This document shows positions 4,030 through 34,842 of a stretch of DNA of 39,436 nt, in pieces (the first letter of the stretch is position 1; each line of letters opens with the position of its first letter). The notes under the pieces were generated by a model. It ran no database searches and was not told the DNA's origin. It was given only the letters and a program-made list of their open reading frames with translations. The position numbers and the translations under genes were made by a program. Source of the stretch: a virus (Duplodnaviria > Heunggongvirae > Uroviricota > Caudoviricetes); IMG/VR virus record IMGVR_UViG_2537561944_000032, one strand, 5' to 3'.

Positions 4030-5279
4030 GAAATTAATGTTCTATAACAAAAACACTTATCGAAAATAGGTGTAATTTATCACTCCGGCAGCTAAAAGAT
4101 CATCTGCCACATGCACGATAATAAATCTTCCTTGCGTCATCATCTCCCTCTGTTCTTAAATCAGGTGTTGCCTGTGTGCGGAGGATTCGCGAAGTACAGT
4201 AGCCGAAATGCATGATCTTACCCATCAATGGTGAGCACGCGATAATAAGTGAGTCCCTAATTGACCACTCATGGCAATACAACTTCAACCAGCATTCATG
4301 ACCACTATCCGTGGATTAACTGTTACATAAGCAACACCTGCTCTAGGCACAAAGCGGGCTGCCAGATTGGGTCTGGCACTGTGCTGTGAGTGTGTCAGTT
4401 CTGGTTTGAGTCAATACATCTAATTTGCTCATTCTGTTTCTGCTATCCATTCCGGGATTTTTGCTTCAAGCTCAAGCTGTGTGGTAAAGCCGCTGTTATC
4501 AATGGTGTGCTCGGCTTTTGCAATAATCCAGTCCTGATTATCGATGTCACTTTTGAAGCCTGTCACCGTGCCATGCATTTCGGGATAGAGTTCTGCGCGT
4601 CCACGCGCCAGCGTGATGGAGAATGATGCGGCTCCGCGTTGTAGCTGCTGCCACTTTGCCGCCGCTGCACGTCTTGCTGCCTGCTCGTTCTGATAAGTCT
4701 TGCGTAACACAAACACGTTGCCTTCCGCACCTTCCATATAGTCACCTTCACGGCTGCTGCTTTTCTCCTTTTTCGGTTTGCGGCGTTTCACGCTGACTTT
4801 TTTCTTTTCCCGTAATTAAGATCAAGCCAGTAAGCACGTACCCCCGTATACGCTTCGCGGTCAGCAATGCGGAACTGATGGCGATCGCCACTGCTGCGCG
4901 TGATGGCGAACGATGGCAACGGCTGGCCCTGTGCGTTCACGCCACCGCCTGGCATGATGAATAACAGATTACTGCTTTTTACCGTAGTGATTGCGCCCAG
5001 CATTTCCGCCATGCGCGTAAGGAAGGACATGTCGCTTTCTTCGGTCTGGTCGGCGTGGTCGATTTCAATATCCATCAGCATTTCGCTGATTTGTGGTTTC
5101 AGACCGTACCGATGAGCGATGGCGGATACCACGCGCTCAACGGTCACATCATGCCAGGACACCTCACGTTTAACGTTAAATTCATCCCGAAAATCTGCGC
5201 TTCTGGCTGAAACAGTCAGCCTGTCCGGCGGTCCTTCGTGAGCGATTTCATCAACAATGTAAGTGCCTTTTTCTGTCAG

Positions 5280-30263: not shown

Positions 30264-30575
30264 TTATTCAGGAAATAACGCCCGGATATTTCCGGCCATC
30301 TGACTGGTTATCTGTGCGGTTGATACTGGCTGTGATGCGGGGCGTTCTGTCCTGGTTTGTGTCACTGATAACGCTTCATCACCAGCCCATGCAGCCAGTC
30401 GATAAGCCTCTGCCGGATTCATTTTCAGAAGTGCCAGCCCGGCCAGAAAAGCCACGCGTTGGCCGCTTTTGCGGGCTTCTGGTGTAAGGCTGTCCAGCCA
30501 GGCGCATGCTTCTCCTTCGTTCTTGACGGCGGTGGGCTTCAGATAGAAACTTATCCGTCTGGTTGGAGTCGTCAT
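30264..30575 (-). CDS. ParR/StbB-like centromere-binding adaptor (ribbon-helix-helix type)
   Basis: 103 aa from ATG 30575 (AAGGAG RBS, 2 nt after parM-like stop). RRISFYLKP...LDSLTPEARKSGQRVAFLAGLALL and C-terminal IRALFPE resemble plasmid R1 ParR as I recall it. Confidence 0.65.
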   Translation of the reverse strand: MTTPTRRISFYLKPTAVKNEGEACAWLDSLTPEARKSGQRVAFLAGLALLKMNPAEAYRLAAWAGDEALSVTQTRTERPASQPVSTAQITSQMAGNIRALFPE

Positions 30576-30579
30576 TGGT

Positions 30580-31539
30580 TTACTCCTTGTCCATTGCGTA
30601 CAGCCCATTAACCAGAGCAAACTGTGGCACCCCGTCCGCGATGAAAGTCGCATTAACTCCGCAGGCTTCGCGGATAGCGGGTGCCACAATCTCCGCCCCT
30701 CCACCGACAACCATCACCCGCCCGTAACCCGAAAAACCCGCCAGCGCGCGGATCACGCGTTGTTTCAGTGTTTCTTCCTTTTCACGAATAACCGCCATCA
30801 GGCTGGCGTAATGCGCGTCATTGTGGATGTGCTGGCGCAGCCAGGCTTCATCATGGCGATGTTCGATAATGGTATTGGCGATGTGGTGACTGGTGCGCAT
30901 ACCGTTAGTGGCCATCACCGACAGTACGGCATCGGCCATCAGAGAAACGCCCACGTGTGGATCGCAAAACACCTGGCTGATACCTGCCAGTTGCCCCTGA
31001 ACCTTTGCCACATCCAGAGTGGTTCCGCCCAAATCCACAATCAGCAGGGATTCAAACGGACTCATGTCAGCCAGTGCCTTAAAGCCAGCCGGAATGGATT
31101 CAGGCATAACCCGTACGTTACGGATAGTGAATGCTTCGCCGTTCTGGTACTCCACCGGGCGCATGACGTTCGCTTTTTTGCGGTTGATGTTGGCCATGTC
31201 CGGCTGTGCGTTTGTATCGAAATACTCGCTCAGTGGCAGGGTGACAACCACATCCACTTCCTGTGGTGTGATGCCTGATTTGACCAGCGCGTGATGAATG
31301 GCAATTATATTCACATCGCTGTACTGGTATTGCGTGTCGGTCGTCTGGACAAAGCGATCGCTGACCGGATCAAAACCATAGCGCACGCCATCAAGCATGT
31401 AGTTCGCGGGCTGCGTGCCACCGAACGGCGCAGACCATTCCGACTTGAAGCTGTTCGGGCTGATGGCGTTGCGGCGTTCGCCGTTCTCAGTCCATGCCAG
31501 CTTGATGTTGGTGGAGCCGTCGTCGATACAAATTTTCAT
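30580..31539 (-). CDS. ParM/StbA-like actin-family ATPase
   Basis: N-terminus MKICIDDGSTNIKLAW...ISPNSFKSEW...QYSDVNIIAIHHALVKSG closely parallels plasmid R1 ParM (FIDDGSTNIKLQW...ISPNSFKREW...QYSDVNVVAVHHALL) as I recall it; also the adjacent-Gly phosphate-binding loop DLGGTT. Confidence 0.8.
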   Translation of the reverse strand: MKICIDDGSTNIKLAWTENGERRNAISPNSFKSEWSAPFGGTQPANYMLDGVRYGFDPVSDRFVQTTDTQYQYSDVNIIAIHHALVKSGITPQEVDVVVTLPLSEYFDTNAQPDMANINRKKANVMRPVEYQNGEAFTIRNVRVMPESIPAGFKALADMSPFESLLIVDLGGTTLDVAKVQGQLAGISQVFCDPHVGVSLMADAVLSVMATNGMRTSHHIANTIIEHRHDEAWLRQHIHNDAHYASLMAVIREKEETLKQRVIRALAGFSGYGRVMVVGGGAEIVAPAIREACGVNATFIADGVPQFALVNGLYAMDKE

Positions 31540-31574
31540 GTCGCTTTTCCTTGTGTTGATTAATTAATCGGTTA

Positions 31575-31685
31575 CAGGATTTTTAAATCCCGCTTTTGCC
31601 TGTTTTGTGCGCGCTTCATATATCGCGGCACGTTTTTTGCTCATTTACGGGATTTGTGAGTCCCGTTTCTGTCTGTTTTTTGTTT
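31575..31685. repeat. two copies of a 35-40 bp direct repeat containing a short palindrome, spanning the 3' end of gene A and the parM upstream region
   Basis: acaggatttttaaatcccgcttttgcctgttttgtg (31575-31610) versus acgggatttgtgagtcccgtttctgtctgttttttg (31645-31680), about 80% identical. Confidence 0.4.
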
Positions 31686-34456
31686 CCACTGGTCAGGCTA
31701 CCCCGCAGCAGGTCTGCTTTGCGGTGGGCGCGTTCAGTGGTTTCACTGATTCTCTGTGCGTGCACTGCGTCACGGATGGCGCGCAGCATGTCAGAAAGCA
31801 CGGTAACGGGGGTTTTCATGGTGTTCTGGTCCTGCTGAAGTGTGGATGCCAGGTGTGCGGCGGCTTCGGGGTCTGATGCCCCCAGCTGTTCCAGATAGCT
31901 GGCGACCGGGTTATGGCGGATCTCCGTGCTGCTTACGCCGTGATTACGGCTCAGGCGCTGCCAGAGTTGCGTGATTCGGCTGTCCGGGCGGGTATCTGGT
32001 TTGCGTACAATTTCAAATCCCTGCGGTGCAATGATGCTGCCGTCAACGTACAGACTGCCGCCCCGTAACAGGTGCTGCATCTGCTGTTCACCGATATGCA
32101 GGCCGAGAGATTCAGCAGACTCCCGCCATTCTTTAGCGAGTAACTCGTGATTATCAGGCAAAGGCCGTGGCTGTTTGCGGCTCTGTGTCCAGTTCTGCAT
32201 TTCATCACTGCTGTTTTTTGCCTGTTTGTCACGCAGCGAACGCATCAGCGCCCGGCGTTCGTGCCGTTTCAGTGAGCGCATCCATTCATTCACGTCAACG
32301 CCGTCAGGAAGCTGCGGCCACGGTGCTGGCCTTTCTTCCGGCTGTTCTGTCCCGTTGTTGTCCGTTTCCTGTACACGGGGACAGTTATTGCCACGAGTCC
32401 AAGGGGCGGCAGGGCCGCCCTGAAGGTCAAAACCATTTTCGCGGGTGCTGTCTTCCGCTTCCGGTTTACGTCTTACCAGCTTCCAGTTATCCGGGTGCGT
32501 GCACACACGGGAGGATTCCCCGATGAGTGGTGACCAGATCCCGTAAATCTGTACGCTCTGTTCGCCGTAATCGTTCAGCTCATCTGCGAGGTCGTAGGCG
32601 GTGCGAATCAGGTAGTCTTTGCGTGGAACAAGTACGCCGCCCTGTTTCTCAATGTAGGTGGCAAAACACCCGGCATCAGCGGCAGCGAGTACCGCATCCA
32701 TTGCATCATCCTTCAGCCGTTGTGGGCCTTCCGGGTTGCGTGCCATCTGGCTGGCAAGGCGGCGGAGTTCACGCCATACCTGACGGGAGGGGATGCCAAA
32801 GAACTGGAACTGGCGGACCCGGTGAAGGCGTGCCCAGCCGATGGCGCGTTCCACGCTCTCGGCCATTGATTTTCCGGTTTCGTGGTCAACGCGTGGCTTG
32901 CCCGTTTTCGGGTCGATGCCATCCACGGCGCGGCTGTCCAGGTTCTTTCCGATGTAGGTGGCGATGTAGCTGGTTGGCGTGCCTTTTGAGCCGTCGACAT
33001 ACTCCACCTTAAAGCGCGGAGTAATATCATTGCCCAGCTCGTGGCGGTCTTCCTGAATGGCAATATCGCGGGTGTGGGACACAATGGTGTCGATTTCTTC
33101 CGGATGAGCAAAGACCATCATATGCCAGTGCACGGTGCCGTCATGGTGAGGCTCCACCGTGCGGATGCCATACCAGCGCAGGCCGTCGCGGTTCAGTTTC
33201 TTGCGGACCGCCGCAAAAAACGTGTTAACCAGGTAATCGCTGGAGTCGCGCATGGTGGCCCCGTTCCATTTGGGATTCGGATGACCGTTCTCTGTTGTGG
33301 CGTGGTATTTTGACGGGCAGGTGACAGTCAGAAACACCGCTCTGTCGCCACGGGCTTCGGCCAGAAGTTCCAGCCCCTTCATGGTGGCCATCATTTCTGC
33401 CTTACGGTGAATCGGGTTACTTACTCCCGCGTAATACACTGTCTCGAGATCAATCGTGAACCCGTCTTCGTTTTCCAGCATGAAACTTTTCAGGAAATCG
33501 CGTGTTTTCTCGCGCTGTGCGCGAAACTCGCTTAACGCGTCCTGGCTCAGATAGGGTGATGTTTTTCTGGAAACCAGACAGGCGGCGCGGAGTTGTTCTT
33601 CTCTCCACTCGCAACGTAACAGCCACAGTTTGCGTTTCCACCATTCCGCACAGGTCAGGCGAAGGATTGCGCCCGGCAGCAGCTCCGTGTCCGGTTCATT
33701 CCTCCGGTCTTTGTCTGTTGTCAGAGCGTCATAATGTGGAGGCATAGCGTGCAGGTGTAACGCCATGCGGGCCAGCATCTGATACGCCTTCAGCGTTACA
33801 TCCATGGTCAGCTCGCCATCGGTCGCGCCAAAGCCATCGCAGAGTTTTTCAAAAGTGCCACTGAACATCGCCGCCGTCATGGTGGCCAGCGTCTGTATCT
33901 GGTGTTTGTTGAGCTGCGGCAGGTAAAGCAAATCGTCCAGGCGTTCGCGTCCGGCAAGGGAGCGATAGCCCGGTGTCAGCCAGCGGCTGTCGGTGCGGTC
34001 CAGACGTTCGAATATTTTGCGCAGGGTTCCGCGCGCGTAGCGTTCAGCCTGCCAGCTCTTTTTGCCTTTCTGACGATCGGCTTCCTGCTTCTTGCGCAGA
34101 AAAGAGAGGTGGCGGCTCAGAGGTTCACGCAGATAAACGGGAAGCACCTTCAGTGTGGCAAAAGCACGGGCCACCGGGTCTTGTTCTGTTGCCTGACGCT
34201 TGCTGATGATGCTTTGTGCCAGCTTTTCACGCTGTCCGGCTTCCTCAAGGGATGCCATGAGTTTTTTACCCACGGTGGATTGTGCGAAAAAGGCTTCTTC
34301 CTTCGCTTCCTGTTCTTCCTGTGCCCTTTTGTTTGCCTCAAGGTAGTAACGGATGGCGCGTTGCAGGTCGGTTTCAGTTTCCTGCCTGCGCTCCGTAAAT
34401 CTGGCCGGATCAATGGCTGGCCGTGGTTCATTCCAGCTCCATGCAAACGCACTCAT
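31616..34456 (-). CDS. A: replication initiation endonuclease gpA-like (rolling-circle HUH nickase)
   Basis: About 946 aa; HUH motif GTVHWHMMVFAH and paired catalytic tyrosines SYIATYIGK; ATG 34456 in ATGA overlap with upstream ORF (GTG 34483 alternative). Confidence 0.85.
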   Translation of the reverse strand: MSAFAWSWNEPRPAIDPARFTERRQETETDLQRAIRYYLEANKRAQEEQEAKEEAFFAQSTVGKKLMASLEEAGQREKLAQSIISKRQATEQDPVARAFATLKVLPVYLREPLSRHLSFLRKKQEADRQKGKKSWQAERYARGTLRKIFERLDRTDSRWLTPGYRSLAGRERLDDLLYLPQLNKHQIQTLATMTAAMFSGTFEKLCDGFGATDGELTMDVTLKAYQMLARMALHLHAMPPHYDALTTDKDRRNEPDTELLPGAILRLTCAEWWKRKLWLLRCEWREEQLRAACLVSRKTSPYLSQDALSEFRAQREKTRDFLKSFMLENEDGFTIDLETVYYAGVSNPIHRKAEMMATMKGLELLAEARGDRAVFLTVTCPSKYHATTENGHPNPKWNGATMRDSSDYLVNTFFAAVRKKLNRDGLRWYGIRTVEPHHDGTVHWHMMVFAHPEEIDTIVSHTRDIAIQEDRHELGNDITPRFKVEYVDGSKGTPTSYIATYIGKNLDSRAVDGIDPKTGKPRVDHETGKSMAESVERAIGWARLHRVRQFQFFGIPSRQVWRELRRLASQMARNPEGPQRLKDDAMDAVLAAADAGCFATYIEKQGGVLVPRKDYLIRTAYDLADELNDYGEQSVQIYGIWSPLIGESSRVCTHPDNWKLVRRKPEAEDSTRENGFDLQGGPAAPWTRGNNCPRVQETDNNGTEQPEERPAPWPQLPDGVDVNEWMRSLKRHERRALMRSLRDKQAKNSSDEMQNWTQSRKQPRPLPDNHELLAKEWRESAESLGLHIGEQQMQHLLRGGSLYVDGSIIAPQGFEIVRKPDTRPDSRITQLWQRLSRNHGVSSTEIRHNPVASYLEQLGASDPEAAAHLASTLQQDQNTMKTPVTVLSDMLRAIRDAVHAQRISETTERAHRKADLLRGSLTSGNKKQTETGLTNPVNEQKTCRDI

Positions 34457-34842
34457 GGCTGGTATCCCGTCACGCGCTGCCACTCCTGTGAGAAGAGGGC
34501 GGAAAGGCGGTTAAATTCAGCGGAGTATTCACTCAGCGAGGCACACCCGCCAGCAGTGCGATGCGCCAGCATTGCCGCAAATATGGAGGCCGGGGAGTCG
34601 TAATACGCCAGCAGTGATTCGCCGTGTGGTGTCAGGCAGTGCAACGCCAGCCCGTGTGGTGTGAAGTCCACGCGGTAGCAGTCGTCTACTGTGAAATAAA
34701 GGGTGTCTGCATTCTCCGGTTTTGTGGTGCGTGCTCTGTTGTCACGACCACGGATGTAGAGATCAAATAATCCCTGAAGAACGGGAGCCAGACGGGTGTC
34801 CTGTGTGCGCACCCATCTTGTGAAGTCATGAGCGTCAATCAT
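34453..34842 (-). CDS. hypothetical early protein (129 aa)
   Basis: ORF translationally coupled to gene A (ATGA overlap); no family recognised. Confidence 0.5.
   Translation of the reverse strand: MIDAHDFTRWVRTQDTRLAPVLQGLFDLYIRGRDNRARTTKPENADTLYFTVDDCYRVDFTPHGLALHCLTPHGESLLAYYDSPASIFAAMLAHRTAGGCASLSEYSAEFNRLSALFSQEWQRVTGYQP

Follow-up and report, generated by a model that had tools for sequence, protein, structure and literature searches.

The paired 38-nt direct repeats at the junction of gene A and parM are probably parC, the site in cis on which a type II ParMRC partition cassette acts, in a P88-like (Xuanwuvirus) prophage of the P2 family, a reading drawn from sequence comparison. As in type II ParMRC systems, the locus has an adjacent ParM, a ParR gene after parM, a repeat site upstream, and co-inheritance of that site with the two genes. 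The window analyzed here is the whole 39,436-nt stretch of DNA. A, parM, and parR all lie on its minus strand, along which the order is repeat 2, repeat 1, parM, and parR. The features used below are as follows:

31616 to 34483, minus strand: gene A (longest open reading frame; likely start ATG 34456), P2-type rolling-circle replication initiator
32381 to 32405, minus strand: homologue of the P2/186 origin nick site, CCCTTGGACTCGTGGCAATAACTGT, outside the repeats
31645 to 31682, minus strand: distal repeat, copy 2, sense CAAAAAACAGACAGAAACGGGACTCACAAATCCCGTAA, overlapping the last 22 codons of A
31649 to 31664, minus strand: core of copy 2, GGGACTCACAAATCCC, GGG-N10-CCC
31610 to 31644, minus strand: central segment between the repeats, 35 bp, holding the A stop codon TGA
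31572 to 31609, minus strand: proximal repeat, copy 1, sense CACAAAACAGGCAAAAGCGGGATTTAAAAATCCTGTAA, in the A-parM spacer
31576 to 31591, minus strand: core of copy 1, GGGATTTAAAAATCCT
31556 to 31564, minus strand: ATTAATCAA, between copy 1 and the parM ribosome-binding site
30580 to 31539, minus strand: parM, 319 aa, actin-like segregation ATPase
30264 to 30575, minus strand: parR, 103 aa, adaptor, directly after parM

A preliminary description had reported paired direct repeats of about 35 bp lying some 70 bp apart, one inside the last codons of A and one in the A-parM spacer. We confirmed the pair as two units of 38 nt with 79% identity, placed as described, and a direct-repeat search, which returned this one family only, gave a start-to-start spacing of 73. 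The interval 31575-31690 named in that description spans both copies. The A stop codon TGA occupies 31618-31616 and the parM ATG lies at 31539, leaving a spacer of 76 nt, and the repeats finish 33 nt ahead of the ATG. Each copy had also been described as a palindrome followed by a T-rich tail, which holds on the plus strand, where the palindromes are CAGGATTTTTAAATCCCG at 31575-31592 and CGGGATTTGTGAGTCCCG at 31648-31665. Read on the coding (minus) strand, each repeat is an A-rich run and then the palindrome CGGGAyT-N4-AATCCyG. With at most one mismatch, this palindrome occurs at just these two sites within the 39.4-kb window. The two cores are 73 bp apart, about seven helical turns, and so face the same side of the DNA; both repeats and the center together measure 111 bp.

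The best self-diagonal score in a 181-nt region around the repeats was 14, against 7.8 ± 1.0 in dinucleotide shuffles, with none of 300 shuffles scoring as high; in a 601-nt region the same score was matched by 1 of 100 shuffles. The two copies resemble each other more closely in the consensus of 11 close relatives than in the window. In most relatives the copy 2 core reads GGGATTCACAAATCCC, a perfect CGGGATT/AATCCCG palindrome, and the T carried at 31576 in copy 1 is in the minority, occurring in 14 of 71 unique sequences, whereas most relatives have CCC.

The proteins encoded downstream belong to the families expected of such a cassette. ParM matches the Pfam families StbA_N (E=3.7e-82) and ParM C-terminal domain (E=1.3e-68) and shares 46-52% identity with plasmid ParM proteins. 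ParR matches Plasmid_stab_B (E=7.8e-23). A profile containing ParR matches the pB171 ParR structure 2JD3 (E=3.9e-17), the sole solved structure matched; the profile was needed, as the single sequence gave no match in the PDB. The AlphaFold monomer of ParR, with a pLDDT of 55, was too poor for a fold search. The N-terminus of ParR, TRRISFYLKP, is presumed to form the ribbon strand, and its C-terminus reads NIRALFPE; in alignments, RRISFYLKP near the N-terminus and N-x-x-x-LFP near the C-terminus are conserved throughout the ParR family. On these family matches and motifs, ParR is a bona fide Plasmid_stab_B member and an adaptor of the ribbon-helix-helix (RHH) type. Gene A matches Phage_GPA (E=8.9e-130) and was aligned with the A genes of P2 and 186.

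Mosaic relatives, which separate the repeats from the end of A, provide insight into what the repeats are inherited with. A search with the C-terminal domain of A, which returned mostly fragments, reached two of them, L171 and L172. L171 has a different A tail ahead of the repeats: upstream of 31682 the alignment is near-random, and downstream it runs at 93-100% identity per 30-column block. The breakpoint at about 31681/31682, the 5' edge of copy 2, recurs against L176, in which an unrelated 151-aa open reading frame stands upstream of the repeats. In L172, the A stop codon comes before copy 2, truncating A, and the repeats are retained. As read from these junctions, the repeats are co-inherited with parM-parR as a cassette, whatever stands upstream, and the par module is bounded on its left by copy 2. 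In L172 and in Chuche, the stretch of the A tail that copy 2 encodes is dispensable or carries a frameshift, yet the DNA repeat is kept, and the overlap of copy 2 with the last codons of A therefore appears incidental.

More distant lineages keep the paired core where the flanking sequence has diverged. In P2-like prophages of Plesiomonas and Hafnia, whose ParM is 62% identical, GGG-N10-CCC occurs at 4870 and 4942 (Plesiomonas, L020; spacing 72) and at 4873 and 4946 (Hafnia, L017; spacing 73), in each case 40-60 nt upstream of parM. In Hafnia, a 167-aa open reading frame that is not A lies directly upstream of the repeats, between them and A. Each locus has the composite core pattern once, where at most 0.03 occurrences would be expected by chance, an optimistic estimate since the pattern was defined post hoc. 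P2, 186, and the plasmid loci that we tested lack the pattern. A ParM search of genome contigs returned three near-identical loci only, and a search of viral contigs with a ParM alignment returned only loci of 99-100% identity; the Hafnia ParM found no match in viral contigs.

The type of repeat also follows the DNA-binding end of ParR. The Plesiomonas and Hafnia proteins share TRR(I/V)SFYL, and this N-terminal strand is retained wherever the GGG-N10-CCC core is retained; ParR variants 56-83% identical keep both TRRISFYLKP and the same repeats. The Serratia-type ParR, with NRKISFYLKP, is paired with different, inverted repeats, and the R1 ParR, with RRTIAFKLNP, is paired with 11-bp A/C-rich iterons.

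Among 69 unique junction sequences from the genus, at a divergence of about 3% that leaves the comparison uninformative, variation in the repeats is not clearly lower than in their neighbors. Nucleotide diversity (π) is 0.032 in copy 2, 0.072 in copy 1, and 0.036 in the A coding sequence; within the palindrome the 4-nt center varies freely (0.154) and the arms less so (0.037), a difference that favors parC. The case for parC rests on the cross-lineage comparison.

The known systems closest to this site include parC of plasmid R1, a type II ParMRC system (Dam & Gerdes 1994; Hoischen et al. 2008, PMC2241845), in which two repeat blocks surround a 39-bp center directly upstream of parM (PMC2241845). 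The phage site likewise lies directly upstream of parM-parR (an R1-type sequence was compared in locus L007), consists of two blocks around a short center (39 bp in R1, 35 bp here), and is A-rich on the parM sense strand; ParM is homologous, and ParR falls in the same Pfam family. The architecture differs. R1 has 2 x 5 direct 11-bp iterons over 159 bp, whereas the phage has 2 x 38 bp over 111 bp, with one GGG-N10-CCC palindromic core per repeat; a direct-repeat search found no R1-type array of 11-bp iterons, only the two 38-nt units. R1 parC is wholly intergenic and belongs to a plasmid replicon, whereas one phage block overlaps the coding sequence of a replication initiator and the element is an integrating phage. 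The R1 center contains an autoregulated promoter, whereas the phage center holds the stop codon of the upstream gene and no recognizable promoter. A scan for sigma-70 consensus promoters found none within the site in the window, Plesiomonas, or Hafnia, although one of a weak or non-consensus type could escape such a scan; R1-type autoregulation is thus not supported. ATTAATCAA, kept in Xuanwuvirus, Plesiomonas, and Hafnia, is a possible weak -10 element. The earlier suggestion of a parC-like centromere placed as in R1 is supported by position, co-inheritance with parMR, the conserved paired core, and an RHH-type ParR, and the architecture departs from that of R1.

In par1 of pB171, as cited in PMC9426499, ParR binds just two 10-bp repeats upstream of parM. 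Few sites upstream of parM (two in pB171, two candidates here) are common to both; the repeats differ in sequence and length, as judged from their description, and the pB171 ParR has 130 aa against 103 aa here, where the central linker is shorter. The srpMRC system of SXT/R391 integrative and conjugative elements (ICEs) has a centromere of four 13-bp repeats upstream of the motor gene; its function has been shown experimentally, and it is thought to stabilize the excised circular form (PMC4489591). It too provides type II partition to an element that is normally integrated in the chromosome, and its centromere, ahead of the motor gene, consists of a few repeats, both direct and inverted. Its expression depends on the element's own activation circuit instead of an autoregulated par promoter, as we propose here. 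SrpR has no recognizable similarity to ParR, whereas the present ParR is a Plasmid_stab_B protein, and the element is an ICE and not a phage; the phage system is known from its sequence. In the Corynebacterium prophage CGP3, AlpA-AlpC-alpS has been proposed to act in handling excised, replicating phage DNA (PMC4446434). CGP3 is likewise an integrated prophage that encodes an actin-like, filament-forming protein and an adaptor that binds DNA, and it has repeats close to the start of the operon. It differs in that the adaptor gene comes first, the repeats are 24 short TTAAnnG units, and both the proteins and the phage family are unrelated.

Some observations count against the parC assignment. 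The conserved core is an inverted repeat within each direct repeat, and characterized ParR proteins are described in PMC9426499 as binding direct repeats. There are two blocks here against ten iterons in R1. Of the 1443 places at which the element occurs in complete E. coli genomes, 1441 were chromosomal, which we also counted against this reading.

If the repeats are parC, ParR ribbon-helix-helix dimers would bind both blocks and bend the intervening 35-bp segment, comparable to the U-shaped ParR-parC complex of R1. The C-terminal LFPE tails of ParR would then capture ParM filament ends, and the filaments would drive sister phage genomes apart while these are excised or replicating circles. 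Because no promoter or terminator is recognizable between A and parM, transcription of the early operon, whose last gene is A, probably continues into parMR; with such read-through, partition would operate once the phage has infected or been induced, and not while the prophage is repressed.

The preliminary description had also considered that the repeats might be origin elements. It was correct that replication of P2 and 186 originates within the 3' part of A. The nick sites lie 427 nt (P2) and 252 nt (186) before the stop codon, and one repeat copy lies within A. In the window, the homologue of this nick site sits about 720 bp away, at 32405-32381, and the nick-site sequence does not occur within 31572-31682. 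Conservation of the nick-site DNA, CCyyGGAsT...CAATAACTGT, extends to each of the eight A genes examined, with CAATAACTGT invariant (the P2 A-protein nick-site sequence is GCGCCTCGGAGTCCTGTCAATAACTGT), which makes 32381-32405 the better origin candidate on sequence grounds. The proposal that the repeats serve the A protein as nick sites, A-binding enhancers, or lagging-strand priming hairpins could draw on hairpins that the palindromes might form once a strand is displaced (about -9 to -10 kcal/mol when folded as RNA) and on TCCTGTAA in copy 1, a weak echo of P2 TCCTGTCAATAA. Hairpin potential is not retained in Plesiomonas or Hafnia, however, where the sites pair just 3-4 bp, and P2 and 186, which have their origins in or beside the same part of A, lack the repeats. 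Across mosaic junctions the repeats go with parMR and not with A: copy 2 alone overlaps A in the window, both copies lie outside A in L172 and L176, and other open reading frames stand between A and the par-linked repeats in Hafnia, L105, and L106. We regard an origin function as very improbable, and this alternative as largely refuted. An action in RNA, either as A-parM stem-loops affecting stability, processing, or translational coupling or as an antisense (plus-strand) terminator pair, is somewhat less far-fetched yet still quite unlikely. Folding is moderate in Xuanwuvirus: hairpins on the sense strand reach -9 to -9.7 kcal/mol (copy 2, z = -3.5), and copy 2 is terminator-like on the plus strand; copy 1, however, folds no better than shuffled sequence on that strand (z = +0.8) and weakly in the sense direction (z = -1.8). 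The arm polymorphisms at 31660 and 31576 are uncompensated, Plesiomonas and Hafnia do not preserve the stem and have no terminator-like sites there, and an Rfam search gave no match. An intrinsic terminator was rejected as a candidate: the sense strand has no U-run, and on the plus strand, where copy 2 only qualifies, there is no upstream gene needing termination. The A-run ahead of copy 2 recalls a frameshift cassette; a -1 cassette of A-run and stem was likewise rejected, with the A-run missing in copy 1 and in Plesiomonas and a product change of about 10 residues.

Two further origins of the repeats, as the operator of another phage regulator or as a functionless duplication scar left by insertion of par behind A, are together unlikely, if less so than a role in RNA. 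The left repeat falls at a recombination boundary, conservation within the genus is unremarkable, and the two copies give similar peptides in one register, so that a tail peptide appears duplicated as KKQTETGLTNPV in A and TKQAKAGFKNPV in a 27-codon open reading frame (31642-31559). A scar would not preserve a paired core and a 72-73 bp spacing at 62% ParM identity between unrelated flanks. The DNA is also retained where the A tail encoded by copy 2 is dispensable or frameshifted. ParR travels with the repeats, and no other regulator gene does. The small open reading frame and its duplicated peptide were set aside as a candidate, as they are not conserved outside the genus (Plesiomonas reads ATG ACG TAA), and are taken to be a by-product of the DNA repeat.

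Should ParR bind these repeats, a centromere would be defined for the ParMRC system of an integrated P2-like prophage: a compact, easily testable parC of 111 bp with two palindromic cores. Binding would also show that the coding sequence of a replication gene can share its end with a centromere, and would give a handle on why an integrating phage retains a plasmid segregation machine. The fuller proposition, that P88-like phage uses a working ParMRC with a compact two-site centromere fused to the end of its cis-acting replicase gene and expressed by early-operon read-through, is doubtful at present, and we put it forward tentatively. If true, the excised or infecting circle would be actively segregated, or positioned for replication, during a transient plasmid-like phase, in parallel with srpMRC for SXT/R391 ICEs and AlpAC for CGP3, and P88-like phages would be facultative phage-plasmids. 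Many E. coli chromosomes would then carry a silent centromere; about a quarter of the complete E. coli genomes, 1304 of 5426, contain the prophage. For the annotation of P2-like phages, in which origin and par site are easily confused, the two appear separable: the origin falls within A, around position 32390, and the par site where A ends.

Judged by sequence, the window is a P88-like P2-family prophage (genus Xuanwuvirus). The 2-kb piece around the repeats shares 96-99.7% identity with phages P88, P884B11, 520873 and Citrobacter phiSM, which are annotated with an integrase, a C-type repressor, Cox and an early operon in which replication gene A comes last, followed by two 'partition' genes. 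The relevant features are as follows.

34483-31616, minus strand: gene A, longest ORF, TGA stop at 31618-31616 (Pfam Phage_GPA, E=8.9e-130)
32405-32381, minus strand: homologue of the P2/186 nick site, CCCTTGGACTCGTGGCAATAACTGT, ~720 bp from the repeats
31645-31682, minus strand: copy 2, coding strand CAAAAAACAGACAGAAACGGGACTCACAAATCCCGTAA, within the last 22 codons of A
31572-31609, minus strand: copy 1, coding strand CACAAAACAGGCAAAAGCGGGATTTAAAAATCCTGTAA, within the 76-nt A-parM spacer
31539-30580, minus strand: parM (Pfam ParM N-terminal domain, E=3.7e-82; C-terminal domain, E=1.3e-68)
30575-30264, minus strand: parR (Pfam Plasmid_stab_B, E=7.8e-23)

A repeat search returned a single direct-repeat family, 31572-31609 and 31645-31682 (38 nt, 79% identity, 73-bp spacing). 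These are the same two copies that the preliminary description had placed astride the 3' end of A and the parM upstream region, read here on the other strand. On the coding strand, each copy consists of an A-rich run followed by a palindrome. The self-match score of 14 compares with 7.8 ± 1.0 in shuffles of the local 181 nt and was reached by 0 of 300; with a 601-nt region, 1 of 100 shuffles reached it. The repeat is more than chance. Allowing one mismatch, the palindrome does not recur elsewhere in the 39.4 kb. In both copies, the consensus drawn from 11 close relatives is a perfect ACGGGATT-N4-AATCCCGT. The window has the minority alleles C at 31660 and T at 31576, and its palindromes are weaker as a result.

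Mosaic relatives indicate where the repeats belong. In L171, an E. coli prophage, the C-terminal domain of A is just 50% identical to the window's, and alignment is near-random upstream of 31682 but reaches 93-100% per 30-column block from 31681 through both repeats into parM. L176 shows the same junction behind an unrelated 151-aa ORF, so that both its repeats are intergenic. In L172 a small deletion creates an A stop codon just ahead of copy 2, and in phage Chuche one extra A in the run preceding copy 2 frameshifts the A tail. Since the DNA repeats are retained in all four, A can seemingly do without the tail that copy 2 encodes, and the module's left edge is at copy 2. On these alignments, the repeats belong to the par cassette. 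The A-run AAACAAAAAAC (31676-31686, minus strand) lies directly 5' of copy 2, and the Chuche insertion and L172 deletion could be homopolymer sequencing errors or real variation. At its other end, gene A begins MSAFAWSWNEPR... in the window vs MTAEYIRDWQQPR... in P884B11 (window 34400-34483), despite 99.7% identity over the 3' 2 kb. By sequence, gene A is a mosaic, with L171 a second form carrying another C-terminal domain.

The repeats had been proposed as either origin elements of the P2/186 type or a parC-like centromere. The premise of the former, that the P2 and 186 origin lies within the 3' part of A, holds: the A-protein nick site is annotated inside A, 427 nt (P2) and 252 nt (186) before the stop. 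It falls in sequence coding ..PRSPVNNC.. and was found in 8/8 A genes compared (P2, 186, window, Hafnia, Plesiomonas, Serratia and two viral contigs), 243-774 nt before the stop, with CAATAACTGT invariant, synonymous positions included. Comparison with the annotated sites places the window's homologue at 32405-32381, outside the repeats, and this sequence is likely the true origin of the phage. P2 and 186 contain no repeats of this kind. With the homologue so distant and the repeats absent from P2 and 186, an origin role for the repeats is very unlikely.

Within-genus conservation is uninformative on the repeats. A ParM search recovered P2-like prophages of Hafnia, Plesiomonas and Serratia in which A ... 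parM-parR occupies the same place in the genome (ParM 62%, 62% and 58% identical to the window's), together with two viral contigs whose ParM is 74-75% identical to that of Serratia. Plesiomonas carries GCGGGACAACAAAAACCCG in the last A codons and GCGGGACAACACTAACCCA in the spacer, 72 bp apart; Hafnia carries GGGATTGAGGAAACCC and GGGTTCATTAAATCCC, 73 bp apart, preceded by a 167-aa ORF, not A. In an alignment anchored on the parM start, GGG(A)...CCC at both sites is among the few conserved columns. The composite GGG-N10-CCC, 54-60 nt, GGG-N10-CCY occurs once per Xuanwuvirus, Plesiomonas or Hafnia locus, always just upstream of parM, against a chance expectation of at most 0.03 matches, an optimistic estimate for a pattern set post hoc. 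P2, 186 and four plasmid par loci gave 0 matches to the composite pair. The Serratia lineage (Serratia-type P2-like prophages L021 4870-4945, L105 3375-3450 and L106 3378-3455) has different par-linked repeats, an inverted pair AACGGGAACGAwAyAGAAAAATG with arms of about 20 nt, ~26-30 bp apart and wholly intergenic; in L105 and L106 other ORFs separate A from them. Upstream of parM in the IncL/M plasmid pSL267 (1008-1178), T-rich repeats are likewise spaced at 72-73 bp, a hint of a geometric constraint common to this ParR family.

A ParR homologue profile including the window protein matches the solved pB171 ParR (2JD3, E=3.9e-17); the structure model of ParR was too poor for use. The presumed DNA-reading N-terminal strand, TRRISFYLKP, is present in the window and all E. 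coli ParR variants examined, although overall identity is just 56-83%, and the repeats are unchanged alongside these variants. The GGG-N10-CCC core is retained in Plesiomonas and Hafnia, whose ParR reads TRR(I/V)SFYL. The repeats differ alongside Serratia-type ParR (NRKISFYLKP), and R1 ParR (RRTIAFKLNP) is paired with 11-bp A/C-rich iterons. This co-variation, drawn from few lineages, is suggestive. E. coli ParR is far more variable than ParM (many clusters at 56-97% vs 98-99% identity for the two largest ParM clusters), with the variation at residues about 60-95 and N-terminal TRRISFYLKP..VK.E..AC and C-terminal NIRALFPE invariant.

The Xuanwuvirus palindromes can also fold as hairpins, with energies of about -9 to -10 kcal/mol. 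The Plesiomonas and Hafnia sites allow pairing of the GGG/CCC ends alone, with 10 nt left in the loop, and the two within-genus arm polymorphisms are uncompensated; an Rfam search of the repeat region gave no match. Within the genus the palindrome centres (4 nt) vary freely, with pi 0.154 against 0.037 in the arms. On the plus strand copy 2 is terminator-like and copy 1 is not; no plus-strand gene lies upstream, and Plesiomonas and Hafnia lack the terminator-like feature. Two triplets, spaced by one and a half helical turns, make up the conserved part, an arrangement that fits a symmetric protein on duplex DNA.

In the most likely mechanism, which follows the established R1 case, ParR dimers would bind both blocks, seven helical turns apart on the same helix face, the 35-bp centre would bend, and C-terminal LFPE tails would capture the ends of ParM filaments that push sister genomes apart. 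In R1 parC, five 11-bp iterons stand on each side of a 39-bp centre, and the two sets are bound separately in a U-shaped complex (PMC2241845). For pB171 ParR, two repeats upstream of parM suffice, and ParC sites differ widely among systems (PMC9426499). Unlike R1 parC with its ten iterons, the putative window site has two 38-bp blocks with one palindromic core each, no recognisable embedded promoter and one block overlapping the replicase coding end. Its host replicon also differs, being an integrating phage: the A-parM junction (31500-31720) is present in 1304/5426 complete E. coli genomes, chromosomal in 1441/1443 places, making a plasmid-type ParMRC on an integrated P2-like prophage very common.

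Scans of the window, Plesiomonas and Hafnia revealed no recognisable promoter or sense-strand terminator between A and parM, so parMR is probably transcribed by read-through of the early operon, and its expression would follow infection or induction. Type II-like systems on integrated elements are known. The SXT/R391 system srpMRC, under control of the element's activators, stabilises the ICE once it has excised (PMC4489591), and AlpAC-alpS supports replication of CGP3 prophage DNA (PMC4446434). On account of its partition genes, P88 had already been marked as a possible phage-plasmid (PMC7969092), and a 'plasmid stability' gene is listed for phiSM (PMC6456863); our literature search found no published description of a P88-type cis site. 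The addition here is a candidate cis site upstream of already known partition genes, and the system's use to an integrating phage is the more interesting question.

Xuanwuvirus, Plesiomonas and Hafnia all keep ATTAATCAA (31556-31564, minus strand) between copy 1 and the parM ribosome-binding site; a consensus promoter was not found there. A 27-codon ORF, MSKKRAAIYEARTKQAKAGFKNPVTD (31559-31642, minus strand), overlaps the A end and finishes with a peptide that mirrors the tail of A; as the ORF is not kept in Plesiomonas, it probably arose as a side effect of the DNA repeat. A prophage module in contig NZ_JBQPOM010000071.1, labelled Vagococcus sp. WN89Y (Gram-positive), shares 98% identity with the E. 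coli phage of the window, and the assembly is likely contaminated or mislabelled.
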